A stretch of 64,000 nt of DNA from Candidatus Eiseniibacteriota bacterium. Its GTDB lineage: Bacteria; Eisenbacteria; RBG-16-71-46. The stretch is from NCBI GenBank assembly GCA_031370785.1, contig JANMQY010000061.1, forward strand, positions 1 to 64,000, in the 5' to 3' direction. Position numbers and translations under genes: made by a program. Below are positions 6,656 to 26,578 of this stretch, piece after piece. The notes below the pieces were generated by a model that was given only the letters and a program-made list of their open reading frames with translations, was not told the DNA's origin and made no database searches. The first letter of the stretch is position 1, and each line of letters begins with the position of its first letter.

Positions 6656-6731
6656 AGGTGAGCGTCCGGTTTATCGCTCCCTCCCGGGCGTGGCGCCAGC
6701 TCGCGATGGCGCTTGCGTCAGTTGACCAGCA

Positions 6732-6744
6732 TGTAACGCGTACA
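6732..6744. promoter_or_regulatory. Palindromic enhancer (UAS) candidate TGTA-N5-TACA
   Basis: TGTAACGCGTACA, ~87 bp upstream of the -24 GG at 6831; half-site TTACA at 6763-6767. Confidence 0.6.
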
Positions 6745-6829
6745 AGCGCGCCATTCCCTTTCTTACAACGATCGCTCATTTTTTCGGCCGTGCCCGTTGT
6801 CAAAACACGACTTCCGGAGACGCAGCCGA

Positions 6830-6844
6830 TGGCATGGAACCTGC
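6830..6844 (+). promoter_or_regulatory. sigma54 -24/-12 promoter
   Basis: TGGCATGGAACCTGC (GG-N10-GC), intergenic, upstream of ATG 6928. Confidence 0.7.
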
Positions 6845-6927
6845 GTTATGTCCCTCCGAGCGAGTTCCCCCGGCTCGCCGCGTGCCGATATCTGGACGGA
6901 ACCACCCTTCGGAAGCGGGAGAGCCTC

Positions 6928-7335
6928 ATGGTTGCACTGACTGACGATCTGACTGCGGCGCGCCGCTTCTGCGAGAGCCTCGGGGAAGCGCTGCGGACCT
7001 TCCAATACCGCATGCAGACCGATGACGAGATCACCGGGATGGTGAAGGCCGGCAACCATGAGGCCTTCGACGCGCTGGTCATGCGCTACCGCGACCGCAT
7101 CTACGGTCTCGCGATCGCCTCGCTCGGCAACGAGGAAGAGGCCGGAGAAACCGTGTGCCAGGCCCTCACCTCCGCGTTCCACGACGTGCGCTCGGTCGGA
7201 CCGGAGTGCTCGACCGGAACCTGGCTTTACCTCCACGGCCTGCGCGCCGTATTCTCGCGCCTTGAAAAGTCGCCCGGCGGTTACGCGATCGAAACGCGTG
7301 CGCCGATCCAAGAGGACAATCTCGAGGTCGCCTGA
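6928..7335 (+). CDS. ECF sigma factor region-2-only protein (paralog A), no region 4
   Basis: TDDEITGMVKAGNHEAFDALVMRYRDRIYGLAIASLGNEEEA...TWLY resembles ECF sigma regions 1.2/2; stops after 135 aa; GGGAGAG RBS. Confidence 0.7.
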   Translation: MVALTDDLTAARRFCESLGEALRTFQYRMQTDDEITGMVKAGNHEAFDALVMRYRDRIYGLAIASLGNEEEAGETVCQALTSAFHDVRSVGPECSTGTWLYLHGLRAVFSRLEKSPGGYAIETRAPIQEDNLEVA

Positions 7336-7363
7336 GAATCCGGAAGATTCCCACCTCCCTTCG

Positions 7364-8884
7364 ATGAGCATCCCGCGTGAACAGCAGCGGGCACGGCTGC
7401 TGGGCATTGCACGACGTGCGATGCTGGAGCGCGGGCTCGAGCCGGACTTCCCGGCCAAAGCACTGGCCGAGGCGAAGTCATTCCCCGGTGACGTCGCCCG
7501 CGAGGCTCCCGATGTGCGCGATCTCCGCAAGCTGGCCTGGTGCTCGATCGACAACGATGATTCGCGCGATCTCGACCAGCTGACGGTCGCCGAGTCGCTC
7601 CAGGGCGGCAAGACCCGGATCCTGATCGCAGTTGCGGACGTCAGCGCGGCCGTCGGGCTGGGCTCGGCGCTCGATGCGCATGCGCGGACCAACACGACGT
7701 CGGTCTACACGCCGGGCCACAATTTTCCGATGCTGCCCGACCTGCTGAGCACCGACCTGACCTCGCTGGTGATGGGCGAGGATCGGCTGGCCATGATCGT
7801 CGAGATCGTGGTCGACGCGGAGGGCGACCGCGGAGCGGGGGTTGTCTTCCGGGCCACTGTGCGCAATCAGGCCAAGCTCGCATACAACAGCGTGGGGCCC
7901 TGGCTCGAGGGCGAAACTCCCGTGCCCGAGGCGGTTGCGGCCGTTCCTGGCCTGGCCGATCAGCTGAGGCTTCAGGACCAAGCGGCTCAGCGCCTGCGGG
8001 CCAACCGCCATCAGCGTGGAGCGCTCGAGCTCGAGACGCTCGATGTGCGGGCGAAATTCGACGGCGATGCGGTGAGCGCGCTGGTGGCCCAAAGGCGCAA
8101 CCGCGCCCGGGAACTCATCGAGGACTTCATGATTGCCGCCAACAGCGCCATCGCCGGCTTCCTCGAGAGCCACCAGCTTCCGATCGTGAGACGCGTGGTG
8201 CGATCCCCGGAACGCTGGCCGCGCATCGTGGAGATCGCCCGCGCGCTCGGCGAGCGGCTGCCGGCCGAGCCGGACGCGAAGGCGCTCAACGCATTCCTCA
8301 TCAAGCGCCGCGCAGCGGACTCGCTGCGCTTTCCCGACCTCTCGCTTGCGGTGATCAAGCTGCTCGGCCGCGGAGAGTATGTCGCGACCTTCCCCGGCCA
8401 GCCCGTGATCGGTCATTTCGGTCTGGCCGTGACCGATTACACGCATTCCACCGCCCCCAATCGACGCTACCCGGATCTGATCACCCAGCGATTGCTGAAG
8501 GCGGCTCTCGCCGGCGCTCGGGTTCCGTACGATCGCGGCGCTCTCGGGGCGCTGGCGGCGGAATGCACGCTGAAGGAGGACGCGGCCCAGAAGGTCGAAC
8601 GCCTGACGCGCAAGGCGGCGGCGGCGCTGTTGCTCGGCGACCGGATCGGCGAGGAGTTCGACGGGATCGTGACCGGCGCTTCACCCAAGGGAACCTGGGT
8701 CCGGATCTTCGATCCACCGGTCGAGGGCCGGATCGAGGAGGGCAGTGAAGGGCTCGACGTCGGAGACACAGTGCGGGTCAAGCTCGTGCATACCGACCCC
8801 GATCGCGGATTCATCGACTTCGTCCGCCGGTCTCACGCTCCGATCGGCCGATCCTCGGCCGCCCACGCTCGATCCAGCAGGTAG
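7364..8884 (+). CDS. RNB-domain exoribonuclease (RNase II/R family, short form with C-terminal S1)
   Basis: SIDNDDSRDLDQ, IEDFMIAAN, HFGLAVTDYTHSTAPNRRYPDLITQR. Confidence 0.9.
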   Translation: MSIPREQQRARLLGIARRAMLERGLEPDFPAKALAEAKSFPGDVAREAPDVRDLRKLAWCSIDNDDSRDLDQLTVAESLQGGKTRILIAVADVSAAVGLGSALDAHARTNTTSVYTPGHNFPMLPDLLSTDLTSLVMGEDRLAMIVEIVVDAEGDRGAGVVFRATVRNQAKLAYNSVGPWLEGETPVPEAVAAVPGLADQLRLQDQAAQRLRANRHQRGALELETLDVRAKFDGDAVSALVAQRRNRARELIEDFMIAANSAIAGFLESHQLPIVRRVVRSPERWPRIVEIARALGERLPAEPDAKALNAFLIKRRAADSLRFPDLSLAVIKLLGRGEYVATFPGQPVIGHFGLAVTDYTHSTAPNRRYPDLITQRLLKAALAGARVPYDRGALGALAAECTLKEDAAQKVERLTRKAAAALLLGDRIGEEFDGIVTGASPKGTWVRIFDPPVEGRIEEGSEGLDVGDTVRVKLVHTDPDRGFIDFVRRSHAPIGRSSAAHARSSR

Positions 8885-8932
8885 ATCCGGCGGGCGAGGC
8901 TGCCGGCAAAGGCATCCTCGCGCGCCCCGGTT

Positions 8933-9334
8933 CTACTTGACCACGACCTGCCGATTCATGAGCTTGAGCACGACGATGACCAGGATCACGACGATCAGAA
9001 CGCCGATGATGGCGCCGGTCGCATCCCCGCCGCTCGGCAGACCCTTGGAGGCGCTGGCGAGCGTGTGCAGGTCCTGGTCCGACATGCTGGCGAGCCGGAG
9101 CTGGGCATCCGCCGGCGAAACGCCGTAGTCCCGCAGCTTCTGCGCGACCACCTTGTTCTCGAGCGCCCGCTGCGCGACCAGCAGGTCGGCGTCGCGCGCC
9201 GATGCGATTGTGGTCGAGCCCGACAGACTCGAGGGTGCGAGACCGGCCGCGGCCGGAGCGATGTCGAGAGCGCCCATGTACAGAACGACCACGAGCGCAG
9301 TCCAGAACCTGAGCTTGCGCGGGAACATTTTCAT
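8933..9334 (-). CDS. PA2779-family exported/membrane protein
   Basis: Signal peptide, LRDYGVSPADAQLRLASMSDQDL...LPSGG followed by a C-terminal hydrophobic helix; GAGAGG RBS. Confidence 0.75.
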   Translation of the reverse strand: MKMFPRKLRFWTALVVVLYMGALDIAPAAAGLAPSSLSGSTTIASARDADLLVAQRALENKVVAQKLRDYGVSPADAQLRLASMSDQDLHTLASASKGLPSGGDATGAIIGVLIVVILVIVVLKLMNRQVVVK

Positions 9335-9396
9335 GTCGTACCTCTCGATGTGAGGAACTGGTGGCGTCCGGCAAGGACTGCCGGCACGGTGATCGA

Positions 9397-9546
9397 CTAC
9401 AGAACCTTGCGGCCCTGAATGACCCTTACCAGCACGACGATGATGGCAATGACCAGCAGGAGATGGATCAGCCCGCTTCCGACGTGAAGCGCGAAGAACC
9501 CCAGCAACCACAGGATCAGCAGCACTACCGCAATCGTCCAAAGCAT
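9397..9546 (-). CDS. lmo0937-family (DUF5670-like) small membrane protein, 49 aa; not in ORF track
   Basis: Translated by hand: MLWTIAVVLLILWLLGFFALHVGSGLIHLLLVIAIIVVLVRVIQGRKVL; GGAGG RBS. Confidence 0.85.
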   Translation of the reverse strand: MLWTIAVVLLILWLLGFFALHVGSGLIHLLLVIAIIVVLVRVIQGRKVL

Positions 9547-9574
9547 GGATGAGACCCTCCCTTTGTAAGTTGGG

Positions 9575-9600
9575 GGCGGCAGGGCACCTTCCCTGCCGCC
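9575..9600 (-). terminator. GC-rich stem-loop downstream of the ice-binding gene
   Basis: GGCGGCAGGG-cacctt-CCCTGCCGCC, 10-bp stem; no clear U-tract. Confidence 0.45.
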
Positions 9601-9621
9601 TCCACCATCAGTGGCGTCCCG

Positions 9622-10371
9622 CTACGGCAGCGCCACCGCGTTGGCATCCATCGTCACTGCTCCGTTGCGCGCCAGGGCACGCCCCGACAGCGATGTGCCG
9701 CTGACGAGCGTGATGCTCGACAGCGCCACGATGTTGCCCCTGAACTGAGTGCCCGTGCCCAACGTCGCGCTGCTCCCGACCTGCCAGTAGACGTTGTTCG
9801 CGGCGGCGCTGCCGATGAGATTGACCTGTGCGTTGGTCGCAGTCGTCAGCGTGCTCCCGATCTGGAAGATGAAGACCGCGTTGGGGTCGCCCTGCGCATC
9901 GAGCGTGACGTTGCCGGTGAGCTGAGCCGACGACGCCCAGAAGTAGACACCGGGCTGGAAGGTGCGACCCCCCAGGTTGATGCCGGTCATGGTGGCGTTA
10001 CGTGCCCGGCCGGCCAGATCGTTGTACGCGATGGTGAGATCGGCCTGAGCGGCCGCCGCGGCGGCATCGTTGACGTGAATCGTTCCTCCGGTCGGCTGAC
10101 CTGCCGGAATGCCGGTGATCGACGACCCGGGACTGACGCCGACGTCGCCGACGATGGTGGTGGTCGCGCCCGTGTTGGTCACGGTCGAGCCCCCCAGGAT
10201 CACGAAGGTGGACGCGGTGCCGAGTGCCGAGGGAGCCGGACCGCCTCCGGGAGGCGCTCCCGGTACCACGCATACTTTGGTGGGCGAATGGCAGCCGCAC
10301 ATTGCCGCGATCAGCGCGGCAGCCGACAGAATGGCGGCGAGCCGAGCGTGGCTTCGTTGAAGAGTTCGCAT
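9622..10371 (-). CDS. Ice-binding (DUF3494) family protein, probable lipoprotein
   Basis: LGTASTFVILGGSTVTNTG, GDVGVSPGSSITG, AVFIFQIGSTLTT, NVYWQVGSSATLG, GRALARNGAVT; signal peptide ending AAMCGC. Confidence 0.88.
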   Translation of the reverse strand: MRTLQRSHARLAAILSAAALIAAMCGCHSPTKVCVVPGAPPGGGPAPSALGTASTFVILGGSTVTNTGATTTIVGDVGVSPGSSITGIPAGQPTGGTIHVNDAAAAAAQADLTIAYNDLAGRARNATMTGINLGGRTFQPGVYFWASSAQLTGNVTLDAQGDPNAVFIFQIGSTLTTATNAQVNLIGSAAANNVYWQVGSSATLGTGTQFRGNIVALSSITLVSGTSLSGRALARNGAVTMDANAVALP

Positions 10372-10491
10372 TGTGGCCCCTCCTTATATGTGAGACCAGA
10401 ACCGTGGGTTCGTTTCGTCTCGGGCTCGGGCAGCGCCCCCTTGCCGCGGAGCTCTGTCGGGTCCGTCCCGCGAGTCCGCGCCGGCGGATGG

Positions 10492-10511
10492 CGGGCAGCC
10501 GTGGCTGCCCG
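10492..10511 (-). terminator. Stem-loop downstream of the OmpA gene
   Basis: CGGGCAGCC-gt-GGCTGCCCG. Confidence 0.4.
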
Positions 10512-10531
10512 GTCATACGCCGGCGCCCGAC

Positions 10532-11962: not shown

Positions 11963-12216
11963 TGAAATCCTCCGATCCGTGAAGGCGAAGACTCCGATCC
12001 AGGGGCGGAGTCCATGCCCATTCCCTTCATCATCCGGAGCACGGACTTCGCGGCCGGCCGGCGGTATCAAGGGTCCTCTTTGAACTGGTGGTTACACTTC
12101 GCTGGGCCTGGTACTGCGAGACGAGGGCAAGTGTCCCGTTCGCTCCGGCTCGAGGTATGACGCGGGGTGTTGAAGCGGCAGGAAGGCCGGATTGCTCAGA
12201 AGTAATCGCGATCTTA

Positions 12217-12930: not shown

Positions 12931-12940
12931 CACGTGGCTC

Positions 12941-13246
12941 CTAGTCCCGTGCGGGATCCGACCGGGCACTCGCCGCGGTCTGGCCCGCCGAATTGGAATG
13001 GAACAGTCTGCCGATGCCGGCGGGAATCTCCGCCAGGACGCCGGGGTGACCACCGAGGAAACGCTTGCCAATCTCGCGGGTCCGGGCGGGCTCGGCGAAT
13101 TCACGCGGCTCGACCGGCGCGTAGGTGATCAGCGACTTGTCGCGCCGTGCCAGCGCACGGAGCAGACCGAGCGCGATGATCACGCTCAGGATCCAGACCA
13201 CGTTGCAGATCGCGATGACAAGTACGCTCACTGAACCGAGTGTCAT
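12941..13246 (-). CDS. Small membrane protein, hypothetical
   Basis: GAAGGA RBS; N-terminal hydrophobic helix; packed between the substrate and sortase genes. Confidence 0.5.
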   Translation of the reverse strand: MTLGSVSVLVIAICNVVWILSVIIALGLLRALARRDKSLITYAPVEPREFAEPARTREIGKRFLGGHPGVLAEIPAGIGRLFHSNSAGQTAASARSDPARD

Positions 13247-13274
13247 GGTGTCCTTCTCTGCCGATCTGGTTCGA

Positions 13275-13883: not shown

Positions 13884-13939
13884 CGCTGATTCCTCTCGAC
13901 TTCCTGGCGCCCGAAGCGGGCCGCCTGTCAACGGAGCGC

Positions 13940-14155: not shown

Positions 14156-14228
14156 CTGAAAACTCCGAACTCGAGTGATTTGAGCCTTGATACTCACGCC
14201 GCAGCGAAGCCGGCGGCCTGCCGGGTAC

Positions 14229-14527: not shown

Positions 14528-14857
14528 TCAGGACTTCCGGCGGCGAGTGCGGCTGGCTCCACCGAATGCGAGGAGGCTCAGCGACACGAGGGTAAGCATC
14601 CCGGGTTCCGGGACGGCGTTCACCGGATTGCCAGGATTGCCCGGTGTAGGATTCGGGTCATGGGACCCGGTAGGAACTCCGGCAGGCGGCAGATTCCCGG
14701 CATCGCCCGCAGGCTTGGGCCGGGTGTCGATCAGCCACTTGTCCGAGGGAAGATGGCCAAGCTGAACGTAAGCTCCCGCTGCGAGCGGAACCACCAGCAT
14801 CGCCAGTGCGCAGATACCGACGCAGATGGACAACCTCGATCTCAATTTCATGTTCAT
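14528..14857 (-). CDS. Small PEP-CTERM protein
   Basis: Signal peptide, Pro/Gly/Asn-rich linker, AVPEPGMLTLVSLSLLAFGGASRTRRRKS; GAAGGAG RBS. Confidence 0.85.
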   Translation of the reverse strand: MNMKLRSRLSICVGICALAMLVVPLAAGAYVQLGHLPSDKWLIDTRPKPAGDAGNLPPAGVPTGSHDPNPTPGNPGNPVNAVPEPGMLTLVSLSLLAFGGASRTRRRKS

Positions 14858-15133: not shown

Positions 15134-15530
15134 ATGGGACCAATCGCGGGCGTCCTCGAGCGAAGCTCGATATCACAGCGAACGCACGCCGGCGTGCAAC
15201 GAGAAGCATTTCGTATCGATTGGCAGCGGTCATTCGCTTCTTGCCGCTTTCCGCACCGATTGGAGGCGGAACTCGTCCTGATGTCGGGTCCGCGATTTCT
15301 CGAAATTATCAGAGCACACGTTTCCTTGACGCGTTCACCATGTGAAGCTGGTACTTCATCGTTACCGGGCGAAACCGGCCGCCGGCCACCCGGAACATGT
15401 CTTGCTCCATCGGCCATTCGCGCCCGCGGAAACTCGACCGGCACTCTCCAGCGTGGGCCGCGCGAAACACACCCGACACCCTTCGGGACTTTCAGATCAT
15501 GATCGCCTCCTGGTGAGGCAAAGGAGCCCC

Positions 15531-18500
15531 TTGGCGCAGATCGAAGCGCCGGAGCAGCGACCGCCTGCTTTCGACGGGCATGCCGTGAGCCCGGGCGAGG
15601 CTCTCGGTGCCGCTTCCTTCATCGATGAGCCGATTCGCGCAGAAATCTTCGGTGTCGAGCGGTTCGAGCAGCACGCCGAGTCTCTCGCTGCAGCGCAGGT
15701 CGTTTCCGATTCGACGCGTGGCCGCCCGCTCTCGCCGCGTGTTCTGGAGAATGGCCGCGTCCTGCTGCAGTGCTACCGCACGATTGCGCTCGCGATCCGG
15801 CAGAAGCAGTCGATCACGCCGGCCGCGGAATGGCTCGTTGACAACTTCCACGTGGTCGACGAGCAGATTCGCGAGATCCGCGACGATCTTCCGGCCGGCT
15901 TCTACCGGCAGCTGCCCAAGCTCGCTTCGGGACATCTGCAGGGCTATCCGCGGGTCTATGGCGTCGCGTGGGCGTTCATCGCGCACACCGACAGCCGATT
16001 CGATCCGGAGCTGCTGAGGCGTTTCGTCGCCGCCTACCAGCGCGTGCAGCCGCTGACCATCGGTGAGCTGTGGGCAGTGGCGATCACACTGCGCATGGTC
16101 CTGGTCGAGAATCTTCGCAGGATCGCAGAGCGGATCATCAGCAACCGCGCCGCGCGCGAGGAGGCCGATGCGCTTGCCGACAGCCTGCTGAGCGAAGACG
16201 AAGGGGCCACCGGACGCGCGACCGCCGCGCTCGAGCTGCTCGCGAAGACCCCGCTCGCGACCGCATTCGTGGTGCAGCTCATCCAGCGCCTGCGTGATCT
16301 GGATCCGAAGGTGCTCCCGATGCTGCACTGGCTCGACCAGCGCCTCGCCACCGAAGGGACCTCCGCCGACGACGTCGTTCGCGCCGAACACCAGCGGCAG
16401 GCCGGCTCGAGCGTGACCGTTCGCAACATCATCACCAGCATGCGATTGATGTCGGCCTTCGACTGGTCCGACTTCTTCGAGAGCGTGAGCCTGGTCGACG
16501 GCGTGCTCACCAGCGGCAGCGATTTCGCCTCGATGGATTTCGCGACCCGCGATCGCTATCGACACGCGATCGAAGAGCTGGCGCGAGGCTCCAGCCACAC
16601 CGAGCTCGAAGTTGCGCGCCGTTCGGTCGCGAACGCGGCGCGCGCACGCCTCGCGACCAATGGAGATGAGCCGGCCGATCCGGTCCGCCGCGGCGATCCG
16701 GGCTATTACCTGATCTCGCGCGGCCGCGCCTCGTTCGAGCGCGAGCTGGGATTCCGGGTCTCGGTGGGCGGCGCGCTGCTGCGCGCGTACGTTTGGGCCG
16801 CGGTCCCCGGCTATCTGGGCACGATCGTGCTCGGCACCGCCGCGATCATGGCGGTGCCACTGCTGCGTTGCCTCGATGAAGGCGTGCCCACCGCGAACCT
16901 CGTGCTGCTCGGCCTGCTGGTCGTGGTACCGGCGTCGGACCTGGCAATCGCGCTCCTCCATCACGTCGTGACCCAGCTGCTCGGACCCCGCCCTCTCCCG
17001 CGCCTCGAATTGCGCGAAGGCGTGCCGAAGGAGCTGAGGACGCTGGTCGTCATGCCCACCCTGCTGACCGGCCGCGCGACGATCGAGGAACAGGTCGAGC
17101 GGCTGGAAGTCCACTTTCTCGCCAATCCGGACGGGGACCTGCGCTTCGCGCTGCTGAGCGACTGGGCGGATGCGCCGAGCGAAACGCAGCCTGCGGATCA
17201 GGAGCTCCTCTCGATCGCGGCAGGCGGGATCGAACGGCTGAACGAGCGTCACGGCCCGGCGCCCGGCGGCGGCGAGCGCTTCCTGCTCTTCCATCGCCGG
17301 CGGGTGTGGAACGAGCGCGAGCGCAAGTGGATGGGCTGGGAGCGCAAGCGCGGGAAGCTCCGCGAGCTGAACCATCTGTTGCGTGGCTCGACCAACACCA
17401 CGTTCCTGCCGGTGGAAGGACGCCCTCCCGAGACCGCTCCCGATGTCCGCTACGTGATCACGCTCGATGCCGACACCCGCCTGCCGCGCGGCGCGGCGAT
17501 TCGCCTGATCGGAACCATGGCGCATCCGCTCAACCGACCGAGGTTCGACGAGCGCAACGGGTGCGTGGTCGAGGGCTACGCGATCGTGCAGCCGCGCATC
17601 ACTCCCGCGCTTCCAACCGACCACGAAGGCTCACTCTTCCAGAAGGCGTTCTCGGGACCGTGCGGGATGGATCCATACGCTTCGGCGGTTTCGGACGTGT
17701 ATCAGGATCTGTTCCAGGAGGGCTCGTATACCGGCAAGGGGATCTACGAGATCGACGCGTTCGAGGCCGCGCTCGGGTGCCGCGTGCCCGAGAACGCGAT
17801 GCTGAGTCACGATCTCTTCGAAGGAATCCTCGCCCGCGCCGCGCTGGCTTCGGACGTCGAGCTGTTCGAGGAGTATCCGGCCCATTTCGAGGCGGCGGCC
17901 GCGCGCCAGCACCGCTGGGCGCGTGGCGACTGGCAGCTCCTTCCGTGGATCCTGCGGAGCGCGCCATCGACCGCGGGAGACCGAGCCCCTTCGGCCATCT
18001 CCGTGATCGGGCGCTGGAAGATGCTCGACAACCTGCGCCGCTCGCTCTCGGCCCCCACCGCGTTCCTGACCCTGATCGCCGGATGGTTCCTGGTGCCGAG
18101 CACCGCGATGGTGTGGACCGGATTCATTCTCACCACGATCGCGGTGCCGGCACTGCTCGCGTTCATGGCCGGGCTCGAGCCGCGTCGTTCCGGCATCTCG
18201 CTGCGCAGCCACTTTCGCGGGGTGCTGTCCGACCTGGCGATCGGGGTATCGCAGTTCGCCCTGAGCGTCACGTTCCTCGCGCACCAGTCGTGGCTGATGC
18301 TCGACGCGATCCTGCGCACACTGGTCCGCCTTTTCATCACCAGGCGCTCCCTGCTCGAGTGGGTGACGGCAGCGCAGTCCACCTACGCCGGAGAATTCGA
18401 CCTCGCCGGGTTCTACCGGCGCATGGCTGGCGGCGTCGCGCTGGGTGCGGCCGCGGGAGTCGCGCTGGTCCTCGAACGTCCCTCCGTCTGGCCGGTGGTC

Positions 18501-21500
18501 GGCCCGTTCATCGTGCTGTGGAGCGCGGCCCCGGCGATCGCGCGCTGGATCAGTCTGCCGCCGCGGGCTCCCGGGGCCGCGCGAATCTCGGCTTCGGACC
18601 GGCGCATCCTGCGCTCGACCGCACGCCGCACCTGGAGTTTCTTCGAGACGTTCGTCACCGACGAGGATCACTCGCTCCCCCCCGACAATTTTCAGGAGGA
18701 TCCCTCGCCGGTGGTGGCGCACCGCACCTCGCCGACCAATCTCGGCCTGTATCTGCTCTCGACCCTCGCGGCGCGCGACTTTGGATGGATCGGCACACTG
18801 GAGGCGGTCGATCGGCTGGAGGCCACGCTCGCCAGCATGGGCCGGCTCGAGCTGTATCGCGGCCACTTCTACAACTGGTACGACACACGCGAGCTTCGAC
18901 CGCTCGAGCCGCGTTACATCTCGACTGTCGACAGCGGCAACCTCGCCGGACACCTGCTGGTCGTGATGCAGAGCTGCCGCGAGCTGCTGAACGCTCCGTT
19001 CGTGGGAACGCGGGTCTTCAGTGGTGTCGAGGATGCGCTCCTCCTGCTGCGTGCCGCGCGCGTGGACTCACCGCGCGCGCGCAGCGCGCTCCGGACTCAG
19101 CTCGGCCGCGCGATCGAAGCGCTGACCTCCTTGCTGGCTGCGGCTCCCACCGATGCCGCAGGCTGGACCGAGCGATTCGTCGAGCTGAGGGCGCGCTCCA
19201 GCGTGGTCTCGGATCTCGCGACCATGCTCGCGCTCGAGCGCGGAGAGCTGGCGGGCTCGGAATTGCAGCGGTGGGCGGAGGCGGCAAGGGCCTGCATTGA
19301 AAGCCAGGCGCGTGACGCTGCCATGTTCATTCCGCTGTTGCGGCTGGATCCGGAGACCCGCGCGAGCCTGGGCACCGGCCCATTGCTGGTGTCGGCCGGC
19401 TGGGCGGCGATCGAGCCGCTGCTCCGGACCATGCCGTCGCTCACGGACGCTCCCGAGCGCTTCGGCGCTGCCGCGCGCGAGCTCGACGCGATCCGCTCGG
19501 AGCTGCTGCACAGCGATCCGGCGAACCGTCGCGAGATCGGGTGGGTCGATGCGCTCACCCAATCGCTGCGGCGCTCGGTCGCCGAGGCGACCACGCTGAT
19601 CCGCCGCCTGTCGGCGATCGCGCAGACCGCGGAGAACACCTTTCAGGCGACGGACTTCACTTTCCTGTTCGAACGCACGCGCAAGCTGTTCTCGATCGGC
19701 TACCGACTGATCGACGGCACTCTCGATCCGGGTTTCTACGACCTGCTGGCCTCTGAGGCGCGCCTCACCAGCTTCATCGCGATCGCCAAGGGGGACGTTC
19801 CCTCGCCACACTGGTTCCACCTCGGCCGCGCACTGACGCCGGTGAGCCATGGCTCGGCCCTGATCTCGTGGTCGGGCTCGATGTTCGAATACCTGATGCC
19901 CGAGCTGGTGATGCGCTCGCCGGCGGGAAGCCTGCTGCGGCAGACGTGCGAGCGCGTGGTGCGGCGGCAGATCGAATACGGCGCCGAGCGCGGCGTCCCG
20001 TGGGGGGTCTCGGAGTCGGCCTACAACGTGCGGGACCTTCACCTCACCTACCAGTATTCGAACTTCGGCGTGCCCGGGCTGGGTCTGCAGCGCGGACTCA
20101 GCGAGGCGATCGTGGTCGCTCCGTATGCCACCGCACTTGCCGCGATGCTCGATCCGGTCGCGGCCACGAGCAATCTGGCACGGATCACCGGAATCGGGGG
20201 CCGGGGAACCTATGGCTTCTACGAAGCACTCGACTTCACCGATACCCGTCTGCCTCCGGAGCAGGATGTCGCGATCGTGCGCGCATACATGGCGCACCAT
20301 CAGGGCATGACGCTGGTGTCGCTGCTTAATGCCTTGCACGAGGGCGCGATGCGAACCCGATTCCACTCGGAGCCGATCGTCAAGGCCACCGAGCTGCTCC
20401 TGCAGGAACGCACCCCGCGCGACGTGCTGGTCGCGAGACCGCGCGTCGAAGAGGTGTCGACCGCCGGCCACGTGCGCGAGCTGATGGCGCCGGTGCTGCG
20501 CCGGTTCACCACCCCGCACGAGTCGGTCCCGCGCACGCATCTGCTCTCGAACGGGCGCTACACCGTCATGCTCACCGCGGCCGGCTCGGGATACAGCCGC
20601 TGGGGCGATCTCGCGGTCACCCGCTGGCGCGAGGATGCCACGCGCGACAACTGGGGCTCATACGTGTTTCTCAGGGACGCGCGGACGGGCAATGTCTGGT
20701 CGGCGGGATACCAGCCTTCGTGCGTCGCGGCGGACGCCTACGAGGCCACCTTCTCTGAGGACCACGCCGAGATCGTGCGGCGCGATCGCGGCCTCATCAC
20801 CACGCTCGAGGTCGTCGTCTCGCCCGAGGACGATGCCGAGGTGCGGCGCGTGTCGGTCACCAACCTCGACATGCGCACCCGCGACATCGAGGTCACTTCC
20901 TACGCCGAGCTGTGCCTCTCCCCTCAGGCCGCCGATCTCGCACACGCGGCGTTCACCAATCTCTTCGTGCAGACCGAATTCATGCCCGAGCACTGCGCCC
21001 TGCTCGCGACCCGGCGAAGGCGCAGCATGGCCGACGCCGAGGTGTGGGCCGCACATCTGGCGATCGTCGAGGGCGAGACCTGTGCCGACATGCAGTACGA
21101 GACCGATCGCGAGCGCTTTCTCGGGCGAGGGCACGGAGTGCGCGATCCGATCGCGATGAACGACGGGCGTCCGCTGTCCAATACCGTCGGCTCGGTGCTC
21201 GATCCGATGATGAGCCTGCGCTGCACGCTGCGCATCCCCGCGGGCGGGACCGCCCGGGTCGTGTTCTCGACCATGGTCGCATCCTCGCGCGAGCAGGTGG
21301 TGGAGCTTGCCGAGAAATACCGCGATGCGCGCGTCTTCGAGCGCACCATGGCGCGAGCCTGGACGCAGGCGCAGGTCCAGCTCCATCACCTCGGCATCCG
21401 GCCCGACGAGGCGAACGTGTTCCAGCGGCTGGCCAATGGCCTGATCTATTCGGACCCCTCGCTGCGCCCTTCGTCCGATGTGCTCGCGCGCAGCACGCTG

Positions 21501-24377
21501 CCGGTCTCCTCGCTGTGGGCGCACGGCATCTCGGGAGACCGCCCCATCGTGCTGGCGCGCATCGACGACGCGGAGGACATCGAGATCATCCGTCAGCTAC
21601 TGCGCGCACACGAGTACTGGCGCATCAAGGGATTGTGGGCCGACGTCGTCATCATCAACGAACACCCGCCCTCGTACGCGCAGGAGCTGCAGAACTCGCT
21701 GGCCGCGCTGGTGCGCGGCAGCCAGCAGCGGCTCTCCGCCGATTCGTCGGGAGTGCGCGGCAATCTGTTCCTGCTGCGCGCCGACCTGATCTCCGAAGAG
21801 GAGCGCGTTCTGCTCCAGACCGTCGCGCGCGCGGTGCTGCTCAGCCGGCGCGGCACGCTGTTCGAGCAGGTCTTTCGATCGCAGCGCACCGAAGCCCCGG
21901 CGGCTCCAGCGGCGACTCCGGCCCGATTCGAAAAGCGCCAGAGCGCGCCAGCGCCGGCGCCGGATCTGGAGTTCTTCAACGGACTGGGCGGTTTCGCCAA
22001 CCAGGGCCGCGAATACGTGATCGTGCTCGCCGATGGCCAGCGCACACCGCGCCCGTGGATCAACGTGGTCGCAAATCCGGTGTTCGGCTTTCTCGCCTCG
22101 GAATCGGGATCCGGTTTCACGTGGTCGCTCAACAGTCACGAGAACCGGCTCACGCCCTGGTCGAACGATCCGGTCGGCGATCCCGCGGGCGAGGCGATCT
22201 ATCTCCGCGATGAAGAGAGCGGCGAGGTGTGGACTCCGACCGCTCTGCCGATCCGCGACGAGTCGGCTTCCTACATCGCGCGCCACGGTCAGGGCTACAG
22301 CCGCTTCCGGCACGCCTCGCACGGCATCGTGCTCGATCTGCTGCAATTCGTGCCGGCCGAGGATTCGATCAAGATCTCGCGGCTGGTGGTGGAGAATCGC
22401 TCCAACCGCTCGCGCCGCCTTTCGGTCACGGCCTACGTCGAGTGGGTGCTCGGCGCCTCGCGCGGCGACCCGACCCCGCACGTCATTACCGGAATCGACC
22501 CGCAGACCGGAGCGCTGTTCGCGCGGAGCTCGTGGGGCGGCGAATTCGGCGGTCGCATCGCCTTTGCGGATCTCGCCGGGCGTCAGACTTCGTGGACCGG
22601 GGACCGGACCGAATTCCTCGGCCGCAATGGCGATTTGGCGCGACCCCGCGCGCTGGAAGGAGGCCTGCGGCTCTCGGGCAGGGTCGGAGCCGGACTCGAT
22701 TCGTGTGCGGCGCTCCAGACCACGCTGGAGCTGCGCCCCGGCGCGCGCGCCGAGATCGTCATCTTCCTCGGCCAGACCGAGAACCCAGAGCGCGCCCGCG
22801 AGCTGCTGCAGCGTTATCGCACCGCGAACCTGGACGAGGTGGTGCGTGAGGTGGTGGGCCGCTGGGACGACCTGCTGAGCATGGTGCAGGTCACTACGCC
22901 CGAGCCGTCCATGAATCTGCTGCTCAATCGCTGGCTTCTGTATCAGACCCTGAGCTGCCGCATCTGGGCGCGCGCGGCGTTCTACCAGGCGGGCGGCGCG
23001 TACGGCTTCCGAGACCAGCTGCAGGACGTAATGGCGCTGAGCGCCACGAGGCCGGCCCTCACTCGCGAGCATCTCCTGCGCGCCGCGGCGCGCCAGTTTG
23101 TCGAAGGCGACGTGCAGCACTGGTGGCATCCGCCATCGGGCCGCGGCGTGCGCACGCGCATCAGCGATGACCTGTTGTGGCTGCCCTACGCCGTCTCGCG
23201 GTACGTCGAGGCCAGCGGCGACCATTCGGTGCTCGATGAAGTCGTTTCGTTCCTCGAGGGCGATGCGCTCGCCGAGGGACAGGACGAATCCTACTTCCAG
23301 CCGCGGCTCTCCCAGATCCGCGAGTCGCTGTTCGAGCATTGCGCACGCGCGCTGGATCGCAGCCTCGCCGTCGGCAGCCACGGTCTGCCGCTGATGGGCA
23401 CCGGCGACTGGAACGACGGCATGAATCGCGTCGGCCGCGAAGGCCGGGGCGAGAGCATCTGGCTGGGCTGGTTCCTGCACCAGAATCTGCACGAGTTCGT
23501 GAAGCTCGCGAGCGAGCGCGGGGAGCATGATCGTGCGCTGCGCTGGCAATCCCACATGGAGCTGCTCGCCGTCGCGCTCGAGCGCGAAGCATGGGACGGG
23601 GAATGGTACCGGCGCGCCTACTTCGACGACGGCACGCCGCTCGGCAGCTCGCAAAACGACGAGTGCAAGATCGACTCGATCGCCCAGTCGTGGGGTGTGC
23701 TGAGCGGCGTCGCAGACCCGGAGCGCGCCGCCAGGGCGATGAGCGCCGTCGATCGACTTCTGGTGCGTCGAGCCGAGCGGCTGATCCTGCTGTTCACGCC
23801 GCCGTTCGATCGCACGCCGCTCGATCCGGGATATATCAAGGGCTACGTGCCGGGCATTCGGGAGAACGGCGGGCAGTACACACACGCCGCGGTGTGGACC
23901 GTCCTCGCCTTCGCCAGACTCGAGGATGGGGACAGGGCAGGCGAGCTATTCCAGATGCTGAATCCGATCACCCACACCGGCACGCCGGCCGACGTCGAGC
24001 GCTACGGAGCCGAGCCCTACGCGGTGGCGGCCGACGTCTATGCCGAGCCTCCGCACGTGGGACGCGGCGGCTGGACCTGGTACACGGGCGCCGCGGGCTG
24101 GCTGTATCGCGCCGGCATTGAATCCATCCTCGGGCTACACGTGCACGGCGCGGCGCTGGGGATCGATCCGTGCATTCCCACGGCGTGGCCGAGCTACACG
24201 ATCCGGCTGCGCTTCCATTCGGCGACCTACGAGATCAGCGTCGAGAATCCCGACCACGTCTCGCGCGGCGTGGTGCGGACGGAGCTCGACGGAAAGTCGC
24301 TGGCCTGCAGCCGCGACATTCCACTTGCGGACGACGCGGCGGTGCATCGGGTGCTCATCGTGCTCGGGCGCTCCTGA
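15531..24377 (+). CDS. ndvB: Cyclic beta-1,2-glucan synthase (NdvB/ChvB/Cgs; GT84 plus GH94 phosphorylase domains)
   Basis: ~2950 aa; TPAAEWLVDNF, WMGWERKRGKL, YVITLDADT, LSHDLFEG, RQHRWARGDWQ, SWSGSMFEYLMP, GAYGFRDQLQD, GDWNDGMN, ENGGQYTHAA; start uncertain (AAGGAG before TTG 15531). Confidence 0.9.
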   Translation: MAQIEAPEQRPPAFDGHAVSPGEALGAASFIDEPIRAEIFGVERFEQHAESLAAAQVVSDSTRGRPLSPRVLENGRVLLQCYRTIALAIRQKQSITPAAEWLVDNFHVVDEQIREIRDDLPAGFYRQLPKLASGHLQGYPRVYGVAWAFIAHTDSRFDPELLRRFVAAYQRVQPLTIGELWAVAITLRMVLVENLRRIAERIISNRAAREEADALADSLLSEDEGATGRATAALELLAKTPLATAFVVQLIQRLRDLDPKVLPMLHWLDQRLATEGTSADDVVRAEHQRQAGSSVTVRNIITSMRLMSAFDWSDFFESVSLVDGVLTSGSDFASMDFATRDRYRHAIEELARGSSHTELEVARRSVANAARARLATNGDEPADPVRRGDPGYYLISRGRASFERELGFRVSVGGALLRAYVWAAVPGYLGTIVLGTAAIMAVPLLRCLDEGVPTANLVLLGLLVVVPASDLAIALLHHVVTQLLGPRPLPRLELREGVPKELRTLVVMPTLLTGRATIEEQVERLEVHFLANPDGDLRFALLSDWADAPSETQPADQELLSIAAGGIERLNERHGPAPGGGERFLLFHRRRVWNERERKWMGWERKRGKLRELNHLLRGSTNTTFLPVEGRPPETAPDVRYVITLDADTRLPRGAAIRLIGTMAHPLNRPRFDERNGCVVEGYAIVQPRITPALPTDHEGSLFQKAFSGPCGMDPYASAVSDVYQDLFQEGSYTGKGIYEIDAFEAALGCRVPENAMLSHDLFEGILARAALASDVELFEEYPAHFEAAAARQHRWARGDWQLLPWILRSAPSTAGDRAPSAISVIGRWKMLDNLRRSLSAPTAFLTLIAGWFLVPSTAMVWTGFILTTIAVPALLAFMAGLEPRRSGISLRSHFRGVLSDLAIGVSQFALSVTFLAHQSWLMLDAILRTLVRLFITRRSLLEWVTAAQSTYAGEFDLAGFYRRMAGGVALGAAAGVALVLERPSVWPVVGPFIVLWSAAPAIARWISLPPRAPGAARISASDRRILRSTARRTWSFFETFVTDEDHSLPPDNFQEDPSPVVAHRTSPTNLGLYLLSTLAARDFGWIGTLEAVDRLEATLASMGRLELYRGHFYNWYDTRELRPLEPRYISTVDSGNLAGHLLVVMQSCRELLNAPFVGTRVFSGVEDALLLLRAARVDSPRARSALRTQLGRAIEALTSLLAAAPTDAAGWTERFVELRARSSVVSDLATMLALERGELAGSELQRWAEAARACIESQARDAAMFIPLLRLDPETRASLGTGPLLVSAGWAAIEPLLRTMPSLTDAPERFGAAARELDAIRSELLHSDPANRREIGWVDALTQSLRRSVAEATTLIRRLSAIAQTAENTFQATDFTFLFERTRKLFSIGYRLIDGTLDPGFYDLLASEARLTSFIAIAKGDVPSPHWFHLGRALTPVSHGSALISWSGSMFEYLMPELVMRSPAGSLLRQTCERVVRRQIEYGAERGVPWGVSESAYNVRDLHLTYQYSNFGVPGLGLQRGLSEAIVVAPYATALAAMLDPVAATSNLARITGIGGRGTYGFYEALDFTDTRLPPEQDVAIVRAYMAHHQGMTLVSLLNALHEGAMRTRFHSEPIVKATELLLQERTPRDVLVARPRVEEVSTAGHVRELMAPVLRRFTTPHESVPRTHLLSNGRYTVMLTAAGSGYSRWGDLAVTRWREDATRDNWGSYVFLRDARTGNVWSAGYQPSCVAADAYEATFSEDHAEIVRRDRGLITTLEVVVSPEDDAEVRRVSVTNLDMRTRDIEVTSYAELCLSPQAADLAHAAFTNLFVQTEFMPEHCALLATRRRRSMADAEVWAAHLAIVEGETCADMQYETDRERFLGRGHGVRDPIAMNDGRPLSNTVGSVLDPMMSLRCTLRIPAGGTARVVFSTMVASSREQVVELAEKYRDARVFERTMARAWTQAQVQLHHLGIRPDEANVFQRLANGLIYSDPSLRPSSDVLARSTLPVSSLWAHGISGDRPIVLARIDDAEDIEIIRQLLRAHEYWRIKGLWADVVIINEHPPSYAQELQNSLAALVRGSQQRLSADSSGVRGNLFLLRADLISEEERVLLQTVARAVLLSRRGTLFEQVFRSQRTEAPAAPAATPARFEKRQSAPAPAPDLEFFNGLGGFANQGREYVIVLADGQRTPRPWINVVANPVFGFLASESGSGFTWSLNSHENRLTPWSNDPVGDPAGEAIYLRDEESGEVWTPTALPIRDESASYIARHGQGYSRFRHASHGIVLDLLQFVPAEDSIKISRLVVENRSNRSRRLSVTAYVEWVLGASRGDPTPHVITGIDPQTGALFARSSWGGEFGGRIAFADLAGRQTSWTGDRTEFLGRNGDLARPRALEGGLRLSGRVGAGLDSCAALQTTLELRPGARAEIVIFLGQTENPERARELLQRYRTANLDEVVREVVGRWDDLLSMVQVTTPEPSMNLLLNRWLLYQTLSCRIWARAAFYQAGGAYGFRDQLQDVMALSATRPALTREHLLRAAARQFVEGDVQHWWHPPSGRGVRTRISDDLLWLPYAVSRYVEASGDHSVLDEVVSFLEGDALAEGQDESYFQPRLSQIRESLFEHCARALDRSLAVGSHGLPLMGTGDWNDGMNRVGREGRGESIWLGWFLHQNLHEFVKLASERGEHDRALRWQSHMELLAVALEREAWDGEWYRRAYFDDGTPLGSSQNDECKIDSIAQSWGVLSGVADPERAARAMSAVDRLLVRRAERLILLFTPPFDRTPLDPGYIKGYVPGIRENGGQYTHAAVWTVLAFARLEDGDRAGELFQMLNPITHTGTPADVERYGAEPYAVAADVYAEPPHVGRGGWTWYTGAAGWLYRAGIESILGLHVHGAALGIDPCIPTAWPSYTIRLRFHSATYEISVENPDHVSRGVVRTELDGKSLACSRDIPLADDAAVHRVLIVLGRS

Positions 24378-25671
24378 TCAGTCTCGCCAGCACGACCGCG
24401 GTGCGCTTCGCCTGCACCGCGAGCGTGCCGAGGTCCGCGGTCTCTCTCACGGTGTGCCCGCCGTCGCCCTTGAGCCCCATGGCGTCGATCGCCATCTCGA
24501 CGTGCCCCTCCGCGAACGAGACGTCCGCGGCGCCGGCGCGGGCAGGGTCCACCGGCTCGACCGGGCCCTGCCCGAGATCGCGGCTGGCGGCATCCACCAT
24601 CGCGAGCAGCCGGCGATTCCCCTGGCTCGGTGCCAGCGGCGGATAGCCGTCGTCGAATTCGATCGACGCGCCCGCGTGCGGCGGGCTGGCGGCGACGATG
24701 TGGCGCATCGCGGCCTTCGCCCACTCACGCTGCGCGACGCTCAACGTGCGCAGGTCGCCGCTCACCACGGTGCTCTCGGCGATCACGTTGTTCTTTCCGA
24801 ACGCGGTCCCCCGGTTCTCGCTCTCGTCGAAGGTGACTGCCGTCCCGCCGACGATCGCGCCGGGATTCACCGTCAGGTACGGCTCGTGCGATAGCGAGTC
24901 ATGGAATGCGGCGAGAATTCGCGCCGCCTCGTACACCGCGCCGCTGCCGATCTCGTCGCGAAAGATCAGCGAGGAGTGTGCGGGCTGCCCCGAGACACGC
25001 AGCACCCAGCCGCCTGCGCCGCGCCGCGCGATCACCACGTGACGCGGATCGCCGTCGCCGTCCTCGAACCCGATCGCGAGGTCGGCCCATTCGGCGGCCT
25101 GCACCAGGTCCCGGCGCGCGAGCTCGAGCGGCTCACCCGAATGCTCCTCGTCGCCGGTGAGCACGGCGGTGACCGAGATCCGGTTCAGCAACCCGACATC
25201 GGCCAGCGCCCGGAGCGCGGTCAGCATGACGACGTCTCCGCCCTTCATGTCGATCACGCCCGGGCCGCGGGCAGAGGTCTCGCTGAGGCGCTCAAAGCGC
25301 TGGAACGGGCTGTCCTTCTCGAACACAGTGTCGAGATGCCCGATGAGAAGCACCTTCGGGGCGCCGGCGCGCCCGTCGCGACGCGCGACGAAGTGTCCGG
25401 CCCGGCCCCACGCGGCGCCGCCGATCCAGCGGGTCTTGAATCCGAGGGCCTCGAAGGCCGGCCGAAAACATTCCGCGACCGCGCGCACGCCTTCGAAGTT
25501 CATGGTGCCGCTGTTGAGATTGACGGCGCGCTCGAGCAATGCGAGCGCCGCGGGTGTCTGGTGGTCGACCGACGCCACGATCCGACGCTCGTCGGGTGTG
25601 AGCCCGGCGGGCAGGGCAAGTCCGGGGGCGAGCAAAGTGAGCAAGAGCGAAAGCGCGAGAGCGGCCTTCAT
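24355..25671 (-). CDS. M20 family metallopeptidase (carboxypeptidase G2-like), exported
   Basis: IGHLDTVF, GPGVIDMKGG, TGDEE, GGHTVRE; signal peptide. Confidence 0.88.
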   Translation of the reverse strand: MKAALALSLLLTLLAPGLALPAGLTPDERRIVASVDHQTPAALALLERAVNLNSGTMNFEGVRAVAECFRPAFEALGFKTRWIGGAAWGRAGHFVARRDGRAGAPKVLLIGHLDTVFEKDSPFQRFERLSETSARGPGVIDMKGGDVVMLTALRALADVGLLNRISVTAVLTGDEEHSGEPLELARRDLVQAAEWADLAIGFEDGDGDPRHVVIARRGAGGWVLRVSGQPAHSSLIFRDEIGSGAVYEAARILAAFHDSLSHEPYLTVNPGAIVGGTAVTFDESENRGTAFGKNNVIAESTVVSGDLRTLSVAQREWAKAAMRHIVAASPPHAGASIEFDDGYPPLAPSQGNRRLLAMVDAASRDLGQGPVEPVDPARAGAADVSFAEGHVEMAIDAMGLKGDGGHTVRETADLGTLAVQAKRTAVVLARLIRSARAR

Positions 25672-25745
25672 GCGGGCCACATGATGCGTGGAATCATGTG
25701 GCGGAGCAAGACGAGTAGCACCGCCCCCGCGCACCGCATCGGCGA

Positions 25746-25903
25746 TCAGTGCTCCTTTCGAGTCCTGGCGCTCGGGTGCCTCTTCGCCGGCACCTTCGCG
25801 CCCTTCTCCTCGCCTCGGAGAGACCGATCGCAATCGCCTGCCTGCGGCTCTCGACCTTCGCGGCGTATTCGCGCCGTCCATTCGCGCCAGATGACAGCAC
25901 CAT
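25746..25903 (-). pseudogene. Frameshifted remnant of a small basic DUF6496-like stress protein
   Basis: KVESRRQAIAIGLSEAR in one frame continues as KGAKVPAKR in another (1-nt loss near 25805); N-terminus not recognisable. Confidence 0.55.
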
Positions 25904-25996
25904 TCATGCTGCGCGATTCATGACGCCCCGGGAGCCGAAACTTTCCGGCGTGGCCGCCTGCGGGCGAGTCGCCCGTGTAAACCGACGCCGGAATAT

Positions 25997-26009
25997 TGTA
26001 GGCACTACA
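25997..26009. promoter_or_regulatory. Palindromic enhancer (UAS) candidate TGTA-N5-TACA
   Basis: TGTAGGCACTACA; half-site TGTAA 21 bp upstream (25976). Confidence 0.6.
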
Positions 26010-26066
26010 TCCGAACATCCTGCCGAACGGCCGCAATGCCTAGCTAGTGGCGCGCATTTATCCATA

Positions 26067-26081
26067 TGGCACAGAACCTGC
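26067..26081 (+). promoter_or_regulatory. sigma54 -24/-12 promoter
   Basis: TGGCACAGAACCTGC. Confidence 0.72.
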
Positions 26082-26179
26082 CTATGGCCATCTGCGATAT
26101 CAGCGGCACGAGTTGCGAGCGGGTGCTCGCAAACCCTCGAGAGGGTTCCATGTCGGCATCAATTCCGGAGGCTCTCACC

Positions 26180-26578
26180 ATGAGTTCACGGTCGCGCGGA
26201 GTGACTTTCGAAATTCAGGAGAGAGAGAGCATCCCCTCCGCCGGATACGTGAGCGTCCTTCATCCGACGGAGTACCGCCTCTTCAGTGACCAGGCGCTGG
26301 TCGACCTCACTCGCGCGGGCAACAACACCGCATTTGATGAGCTGGTCGAGCGCTATTGCACCTGTATTTACGGCTTCGCTCTCTCCGTGCTCAAGAACGA
26401 GGACGACGCCGGGGATGCGCTGTGCCGGGCCTTCCTGGCCGCGCGCAATGACATTCATTCGGTCGGCGGACAGTGCTCGCCGGGAACCTGGCTCTACCTG
26501 CATGGACTGCGCGCCGTGTTTCAGACGTTGAGCCCCGCGCGCGGCCGATACTCGATCGTGGACGGCGCGGGCGACTGA
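26180..26578 (+). CDS. ECF sigma factor region-2-only protein (paralog B), no region 4
   Basis: SDQALVDLTRAGNNTAFDELVERYCTCIYGFALSVLKNEDDA...GTWLYLHGLRAVF; GGAGG RBS (alternative start 26150). Confidence 0.7.
   Translation: MSSRSRGVTFEIQERESIPSAGYVSVLHPTEYRLFSDQALVDLTRAGNNTAFDELVERYCTCIYGFALSVLKNEDDAGDALCRAFLAARNDIHSVGGQCSPGTWLYLHGLRAVFQTLSPARGRYSIVDGAGD

Follow-up and report, generated by a model that had tools for sequence, protein, structure and literature searches.

Sigma-derived regulator domains are known from one well-studied case, PhyR, and split sigma factors from one pair, SigO-RsoA. The sigma-like domain of PhyR is derived from a sigma factor of the extracytoplasmic function (ECF) class, has degenerate contacts to DNA and to core RNA polymerase, and titrates an anti-sigma factor in the alphaproteobacterial general stress response (PMC8103513). 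In the SigO-RsoA pair of Bacillus subtilis, the sigma-2-type module is a separate polypeptide (PMC7826278; PMC8103513), and RsoA is encoded together with its sigma-4 partner in a single operon, yvrI-yvrHa (PMC8103513). In addition, a survey preprint of October 2026, in which Pfam trusted cut-offs were applied to about 1,400 genomes, describes proteins with a single sigma-2 or sigma-4 domain (“Domain2Only”) as common in bacteria and phages; its main text describes no function, regulation or family (bioRxiv 10.64898/2026.10.08.757525). It was the only literature found on a stand-alone region-2 family or on sigma factors of the Eisenbacteria. Two genes of this kind, here named half-sigma 1 and half-sigma 2, are located in the first 64 kb (the window, 64,000 nucleotides) of contig C69 (JANMQY010000061.1) of a Candidatus Eiseniibacteriota genome (GCA_031370785.1, here G000), which comprises 3.44 Mb in 147 contigs with 67.8% G+C. 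To our knowledge, the Eisenbacteria phylum has no cultured member.

Both open reading frames (ORFs) of the original prediction, which described them as paralogous proteins ending shortly after ECF region 2, were recovered at the positions and with the lengths first given (Table 1), and the start codon of half-sigma 2 is backed by its best relative, P0007 (132 amino acids (aa), 66% identity, aligned over 1-131). The two proteins are 49% identical across 100 aa (E 4e-35), and the motif GTWLYLHGLRAVF, already pointed out as common to the pair, is the same in both. Elsewhere in G000, the next-best matches, on contigs C83 (36% identity) and C30 (33%), are full-length ECF sigma factors with region 4, which leaves half-sigmas 1 and 2 as the only short, region-2-only versions in this genome.

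The Pfam family Sigma70_r2 recognises the half-sigmas weakly (E 0.02 and 0.028; 15.1 and 14.6 bits, cut-off 24), so that both score below the cut-off used for the “Domain2Only” proteins of the survey. The NCBIfam ECF models cover them with their N-terminal halves only (E 1e-11 to 1e-10), as seen for SigM PRK09643 (E 9.5e-12, model positions 10-97 of 204) and PRK11922 (E 9.9e-11, model positions 11-87 of 231). Compared with solved structures, the family profile matched AlgU (E 5.3e-20), sigma-E region 2 (E 2.5e-18) and SigW (E 1.2e-16), and its alignment with sigma-E holds a single one-residue gap and none beyond. An AlphaFold2 model built on 39 family sequences reached a mean pLDDT of 80.5, with the blocks of residues 31-110 at 91-96, and Foldseek placed SigW, AlgU and sigma-E region 2 at the top ranks for it. 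Laid on sigma-E region 2 (4lup_A), the model gave a TM-score of 0.85 on the target and a root-mean-square deviation of 1.0 Å over 82 columns. A region-2 fold, the lack of which would have spoken against the original prediction, is thus supported by AlphaFold2 and Foldseek.

Region 4, reported as missing from the outset, was found in no frame of contig C69 by a six-frame search of the genome (17 matches to PF08281 and 21 to PF04545, all on other contigs), nor in any of the 39 aligned family members, 27 of which have a Sigma70_r2 match (E<=0.01). Behind the stop codon of half-sigma 1, only 28 nucleotides (nt) separate it from the start of the next gene, that of an RNB exoribonuclease. The half-sigmas resemble the RpoE/AlgU/SigW branch of the ECF (group 4) sigma factors in their sigma-2 sequence and predicted fold, with the C83 protein as nearest paralogue in the genome, and differ from it by lacking the linker and sigma-4, by having one more helix at the N-terminus and a conserved PG-x-Y tail, and by lying behind a sigma-54 promoter. 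Both ORFs are almost certainly real genes for stand-alone ECF sigma-2 proteins from the RpoE/AlgU branch, and the family to which they belong is equally secure.

Relatives were collected in two ways. A word-indexed search with half-sigma 1 returned four relatives among 23 candidates, all of 135 aa and with identities of 96, 86, 81 and 67%, and an exhaustive search of 1.84 billion representatives with half-sigma 2 returned 1649 matches at E<=1e-3 and 30 at E<1e-10. Twenty-six of these 30 are 103-151 aa long, the others 73, 179, 194 and 1179 aa. Some 35 diverged relatives, nearly all of 103-151 aa, share the end point of the half-sigmas, and this end point is kept, with the length of about 130 aa, in relatives as low as 24-48% identity. 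The claim that the pair represents a real family and not decay, first argued from the two window proteins, thus gains from relatives that share length and end point and uniformly lack region 4.

The alignment used throughout (A1) comprises 39 sequences, namely P0001-P0027, P0029, P0030, P0032-P0036, P0038, P0039, P0041, P0043 and P0044; it excludes P0028 (1179 aa), P0031 (73 aa) and the longer P0037, P0040 and P0042. Its lower-ranked rows were selected partly on length, and one member, P0038, resembles a fragment of an ordinary ECF sigma factor. In A1, A46 and W99 are invariant and D32, F47, R53, A83 and L100 are conserved in at least 90% of the sequences. Family-specific residues are H103 (35/39), R106 (33/39) and R111 (32/39), and the tail motif P116-G117-x-Y119 is kept at its three fixed positions in 22, 22 and 23 of the 39 members. 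Among the longer proteins, P0028 matches residues 87-119 of half-sigma 2 in 10 stretches and P0103 (968 aa) matches residues 98-130 in 5; these are either repeats similar to the WLYLHGLR helix or a composition artefact.

Within the phylum, a profile search of 201 genomes matched all of them, since full-length ECF sigma factors also score about 90-120 bits (one genome, G015, enters this tally only). Short ORFs above 125 bits occur at nine places in seven genomes, two each in G000 and G152 and one each in G083, G044, G151, G122 and G039. All seven genomes fall in one Candidatus Eisenbacteria family (f1), and their share of its 89 genomes is a lower bound, because more divergent members may be concealed within the score range of the ECF sigma factors. 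A search with the strict, back-translated pattern WLYLHG(L/F)R gave five places in four of the 89 f1 genomes, with zero control matches. Within genera the gene is sporadic: in genus g3, for instance, G152 alone among 16 further genomes has it. When both loci were searched as DNA against G087, a genome of the same genus that is 88% complete, no match was obtained, a result that settles neither presence nor absence. A search with a narrower alignment, A2, recovered one genome locus and six metagenome loci, without the close relatives of half-sigma 1, and a relative in a Candidatus Eisenbacteria metagenome-assembled genome lies in a locus identical to G122:C130.

The regulation of the half-sigmas provides the second line of the argument. 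Each gene had been predicted to lie behind a matching sigma-54 promoter, and this proved sound: -24/-12 elements with correct spacing and orientation precede both (Table 1) and have GAACCTGC in common, and the genome holds an rpoN gene at C60:22570-23955 (442 bits, above the cut-off) together with 16 strong matches to sigma-54 activator genes. Counting both strands, the genome has 31 sites of the pattern TGGCAY-N5-YTGC, and two of them precede half-sigma genes. The arrangement recurs in the family, where nine of the 11 loci with upstream DNA have a sigma-54-type promoter for the half-sigma unit. In seven of them TGGCAY-N5-NTGC is found some 80-110 nt before the start (half-sigmas 1 and 2, G083, G044, G152:C59, G122 and G039), and in the remaining two, G152:C36 and the metagenome locus L049, the promoter TGGCACGCTTTCTGC, identical in both, precedes a three-gene operon.

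Upstream of each window promoter, TGTA-N5-TACA had also been reported, and both copies are in place, with a third copy beside a local activator gene. The genome contains exactly three copies of this palindrome, against about seven expected from base composition. The third is located 109 nt upstream of TGGCACAGAAGGTGC, the promoter that faces the DUF5670 stress operon, and about 190 nt before the activator gene, and for each of the three exact copies the distance to a sigma-54-like site downstream is 70-109 nt. Of 251 sites that fit a relaxed promoter pattern, only these three have an exact palindrome 30-220 nt upstream; one more has a palindrome with one mismatch, where about 1.2 copies with at most one mismatch are expected by chance. 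In G039, a homologue of the activator (64% identity, with a nearly identical helix-turn-helix (HTH)) is the divergent neighbour of the half-sigma, and between the two genes, 108 nt upstream of the half-sigma promoter, stands TGTAGCGGCTACA, a palindrome of the same type. The half-sigma loci of G083, G044, G152 and G122 have no palindrome, and their enhancer may differ. Because the palindrome occurs three times, the third time beside the gene for an enhancer-binding protein (EBP), the half-sigmas appear as two of the three predicted targets of one activator. Judged from the DNA, control of the half-sigmas by sigma-54 and this EBP is well supported and likely.

The features follow the known sigma-54/NtrC-type plan, with GG-N10-GC, an upstream palindrome at 70-110 bp and an activator made of receiver, AAA+ and Fis-type HTH. 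The -12 element, however, is CTGC or GTGC and not the usual TTGC, and the output here consists of sigma-70-family-derived proteins and general-stress genes. In the proposed circuit, the EBP would probably take its signal from the neighbouring hybrid PAS kinase, and hybrid kinases adjoin half-sigmas in G044 and G151 as well. The EBP would then bind TGTA-N5-TACA about 70-110 bp upstream and activate the half-sigma promoters, and sigma-54 RNA polymerase would transcribe the genes from the -24/-12 elements. As the same EBP would also drive the CsbD/DUF5670 operon, the half-sigmas would be members of a small regulon for stress. The window has a fourth sigma-54-like site, TGGCATGGAGGATGC, ahead of a DUF892 stress gene downstream of half-sigma 2; with no exact TGTA-N5-TACA nearby, this site might depend on a different activator or on the enhancer of half-sigma 2, located some 750 bp further upstream.

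Further evidence on these units comes from four metatranscriptome-library runs of one study, in which contigs mostly 90-95% alike to the window represent a relative at about 93%. Such contigs may hold DNA, and they prove neither transcription nor transcript ends. The long contigs of the relative fit the window from 6714 on, 18 nt before the first palindrome, and the sequence before that point is unlike. Around half-sigma 2, the relative fits 25976-26595, that is from 21 nt before the second palindrome to 17 nt past the stop codon, and both flanks are replaced or unlike. The palindrome-to-stop unit is thus kept while its surroundings differ. Both half-sigma units behave, in this respect, like cassettes in different surroundings, with homology bounds within about 20 nt of the palindromes or the stop. 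Among the differences listed, 14 fall at 6750-6829 and 11 at 6845-6863, with none at 6830-6844 and none at 6714-6749, which hints at a conserved footprint over the half-sigma 1 promoter. A 506-nt contig of run X12 occupies exactly 6868-7373; it starts 24 nt downstream of the promoter and stops 38 nt past the stop codon. An RNA-library contig also covers the half-sigma 1/RNB junction (7241-7441), which is no proof of co-transcription. A lack of cover in X12 and X13 over parts of the window is no evidence of silence.

As to what the proteins do, the favoured reading, held tentatively, is that a half-sigma is a mimic of sigma-2 and not a promoter-reading sigma factor. The mimic would occupy a sigma-2-binding partner, either the beta-prime clamp helices of core RNA polymerase or an anti-sigma factor, and would shift the balance among sigma-70-family holoenzymes in stress. 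This reading is preferred because the pattern of replaced residues resembles the degenerate contacts described for the sigma-like domain of PhyR. Residues were mapped through the alignment of the family with sigma-E, the numbering of which agrees with the residues named in PMC6648896, where N80 is described as the unwinding wedge and F64 and W73 as pocket residues. Compared with sigma-E, the positions of Q51, F64, I77 and N80 are taken in the half-sigmas by Cys, Val or other residues, His and Arg, respectively. The equivalent of N80, R106, is Arg in 33 and Asn in two of the 39 sequences; that of F64 (position 90) is Phe in 10; and that of Q51, the glutamine of region 2.2, is C77, with Cys in 22 and Arg in nine members and Gln outside the four commonest residues. 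The region-2.2 glutamine matters for core binding.

With PhyR, the half-sigmas have in common an ECF-derived domain and a general-stress-like gene context. The differences are considerable: PhyR has sigma-2-like and sigma-4-like parts fused to a receiver and a phosphorylation switch, whereas the half-sigmas are sigma-2 alone, of 132-135 aa, without a receiver and under transcriptional control. No candidate for a NepR-like partner is conserved in the half-sigma loci. It had further been suggested that the proteins, which keep two Cys and a His, may be redox- or Zn-sensitive. These residues are indeed kept in both window proteins, but in the family only H103 is widely conserved (35/39), C77 being present in 22 and C94 in 28 of the 39 sequences; the idea is weakened because the Cys pair is not conserved in the family.

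Several observations weigh against the picture of a sigma-54-controlled sigma-2 mimic. W99, the equivalent of W73, is found in all 39 sequences, and the last helix, WLYLHGLRAVF, shows conservation beyond what a simple scaffold would require, with an Arg and a His that might contact nucleic acid; an invariant W99 and a strongly conserved last helix make a DNA-reading role possible. The substitution N80A in sigma-E only halved the rate of open-complex formation (PMC6648896), so that loss of this Asn is not disabling. On the side of a partner, the closest full-length ECF sigma factor (C83) has no adjacent anti-sigma gene, and no conserved unknown gene that could be a candidate partner stands beside the half-sigmas across 14 loci. 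A zinc-finger-type protein encoded after the C30 ECF sigma factor is one of the anti-sigma candidates of the genome. As for regulation, no sigma-54 promoter is seen upstream in two of the 11 loci (G151 and L048), and the palindrome accompanies half-sigmas only in G000 and G039. The patchy distribution, with seven of 89 family genomes, points to a dispensable function. The selection analysis, which had been asked for at the start, gave a divided answer: crude NG86 ratios of nonsynonymous to synonymous substitution (dN/dS) in eight half-sigma pairs lie below 1, yet only moderately so (0.34-0.72; pairs at most 62% identical, dS probably saturated). Among the controls, the half-sigmas are nearer to the small stress proteins DUF948 (0.47) and YtxH (0.65) than to the EBP pair (0.29), RNB (0.25) and OmpA (0.21). 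Estimated from these comparisons, purifying constraint on the half-sigmas is present but modest.

The same modest dN/dS and patchy distribution, together with the Pfam region-2 score below cut-off, would be expected if the half-sigmas were functionless, decaying remnants of ECF sigma factors that have lost region 4. Such remnants would hardly keep a common end point and length down to 24-48% identity, family-specific motifs (H103, R106 and the PG-x-Y tail), intact reading frames, a conserved promoter and palindrome, and, in the related strain, a palindrome-to-stop unit between flanks that differ. Decay is therefore regarded as extremely unlikely.

The conserved last helix and the invariant W99 speak for the main alternative, a minimal or split sigma factor, in which the half-sigma would dock on the clamp helices and recognise and melt a -10-like element, alone or with an unlinked region-4-type partner. 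Phage T4 gp55 recognises and melts a -10-like element alone. In prediction the sigma-2 fold is intact, W99 is invariant, the helix that faces DNA and the loop before it match sigma-E in length and show strong conservation, R106 and R111 included, and being two of the three targets of a dedicated activator suits second-tier regulators. Moreover, SigO-RsoA shows that sigma-2 and sigma-4 can work on separate polypeptides (PMC7826278; PMC8103513). Other residues stand in place of the unwinding Asn and of the region-2.2 Gln, however, and no partner comparable to that of RsoA was found in the half-sigma loci or the genome. A region-4-only partner, which it had been proposed to look for, came up in none of the loci, and each region-4 match of the six-frame search (PF08281, PF04545) belongs to a full-length sigma factor or to a LuxR, Lrp or XRE protein. 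On these grounds the explanation is judged rather unlikely; if true, it would imply a sigma-54-to-sigma-2 transcriptional cascade.

Among the individual candidates for such a partner, the two apparently region-4-only PF08281 matches, on C65 and C124, turned out to be a LuxR-type regulator and a full-length TIGR02999-like sigma factor, and the extra PF04545 matches on C24 and C67 an Lrp and an XRE protein. A third extra PF04545 match, a weak sigma-4-like ORF of 108 aa (G000:C102:26989-27312 (+), the same as L046:4990-5316; HTH E 0.0065, below the cut-off), was set aside, since it does not track the half-sigmas: it is present in 43 of the 89 family genomes and in only three of the seven with a half-sigma. 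It sits in a flagellar cluster, between a response-regulator gene and FlhG/FliA-like genes.

A bolder reading, likewise doubtful, sees the half-sigmas as the regulatory output of a two-component/sigma-54 pathway that would dock on core RNA polymerase, either as the smallest sigma factors of any cell, able to read a -10-type element with no region 4, or as global competitors that displace sigma-70-family factors in stress. A complex prediction for half-sigma 1 (residues 25-135, with A1) and the beta-prime clamp-helix fragment L054:4-318 gave a score of 0.08 and a mark of 0.32, which says nothing either way. In G000 itself, a contig boundary interrupts rpoC immediately ahead of the clamp helices (G000:C118:4-762 (-) and G000:C92:4-258 (+)), a matter of the assembly. 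Were core docking true, it would constitute a direct protein-level link from the sigma-54 to the sigma-70 system. More broadly, half-sigmas that bind either core RNA polymerase or an anti-sigma factor would offer a route from a sigma-54 stress signal to sigma-70-family transcription, for which the family gives a concrete setting, including: a kinase/activator/sigma-54 circuit; a regulon of three promoters; and family-specific residues.

A last alternative arises from the gene next to half-sigma 1. The sigma-2 fold might be reused outside initiation, for example as a single-stranded nucleic-acid binder that acts with the RNB exoribonuclease in stress RNA turnover. Sigma-2 domains bind single-stranded DNA (PMC6648896; 4lup), and an RNB/S1 gene directly adjoins a half-sigma in two genomes, the second being G152 (locus G152:C59), in a different gene order. 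This neighbour is limited, however, to two of 14 loci, and half-sigma 2 and most relatives have no nuclease beside them, which renders such a reuse improbable in comparison with the sigma-2 mimic favoured here.

Table 1. Half-sigma genes, their predicted control elements and associated genes (window positions unless a locus is named).
Feature	Position	Strand	Remark
Half-sigma 1	6928-7335	+	135 aa: N-terminal helix, ECF sigma-2 domain (about residues 30-112), short PG-x-Y tail
Half-sigma 2	26180-26578	+	132 aa
-24/-12 promoter of half-sigma 1, TGGCATGGAACCTGC	6830..6844	+	98 nt before ATG
-24/-12 promoter of half-sigma 2, TGGCACAGAACCTGC	26067..26081	+	113 nt before ATG
Palindrome TGTAACGCGTACA, putative EBP site of half-sigma 1	6732..6744	.	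First base 98 bp upstream of the promoter's first base
Palindrome TGTAGGCACTACA, putative EBP site of half-sigma 2	25997..26009	.	First base 70 bp upstream of the promoter's first base
Third palindrome TGTAGACGGTACA	32077..32089	.	Between stress operon promoter and EBP gene
Sigma-54-type promoter TGGCACAGAAGGTGC	31966..31980	-	Faces the DUF5670 stress operon
Stress operon	DUF5670 31726-31878; CsbD 31437-31646; 71-aa hydrophilic protein 31169-31384	-	
NtrC-type activator (EBP)	32278..33618	+	Receiver, sigma-54 AAA+ and Fis-type HTH; proposed regulator of half-sigmas
Genes after the activator	DUF948 33872-34270; YtxH 34263-34556		
Hybrid PAS histidine kinase	28131..30794	-	Candidate sensor for the EBP
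Single-domain response regulator	27611..28099	+	Start codon uncertain; candidate pathway member by position
Sigma-54-like site TGGCATGGAGGATGC	26754..26768	+	Ahead of DUF892 stress gene 26867-27370
RNB/S1 exoribonuclease (RNase II type)	7364..8884	+	Possibly co-transcribed with half-sigma 1
Operon of 64-aa membrane protein, M48 peptidase and half-sigma (third)	L042:2693-5055; L049:979-3355	-; +	Behind TGGCACGCTTTCTGC

Across the 14 loci, the recurrent neighbours of half-sigmas are YtxH (seven loci), DUF948 (five), a kinase, activator or receiver (five), the 64-aa membrane protein (four), an outer-membrane beta-barrel (three), and RNB, M48 peptidase, an OmpA-type protein and a giant GH94 protein (two each). 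CsbD and DUF892 are also found near half-sigmas, which adds to the general-stress-like context. A scan of the window with Rfam gave no RNA family.

The giant protein of the window (15342-24377, + strand, about 3000 aa) has GH94 supersandwich, GH94 catalytic and glucoamylase-like domains and presumably resembles cyclic beta-1,2-glucan synthases. A giant GH94 homologue, L044:3998-10798, is the divergent neighbour of the G122 half-sigma. Elsewhere in the window lies a gene for a small secreted protein (14528-14854, - strand) with a weak PEP-CTERM match (E 0.0015), over which run X11 placed a 194-nt RNA-library contig (14648-14835) at a depth of about 3000. Approximately 130 nt upstream of this gene, at 14998-14984 on the - strand, TGGCATCAATCTCGC shows the sigma-54-like GG-N10-GC spacing, and an 18-nt stretch with this site is found again at 14243-14226, within an upstream block that is repeated. 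The remaining observations concern a 954-aa ORF (602-3466, + strand) that combines HEAT repeats with a weak match to TLC ATP/ADP transporters, and an ice-binding-like protein (9622-10371, - strand) recognised by Pfam at E 8e-63.

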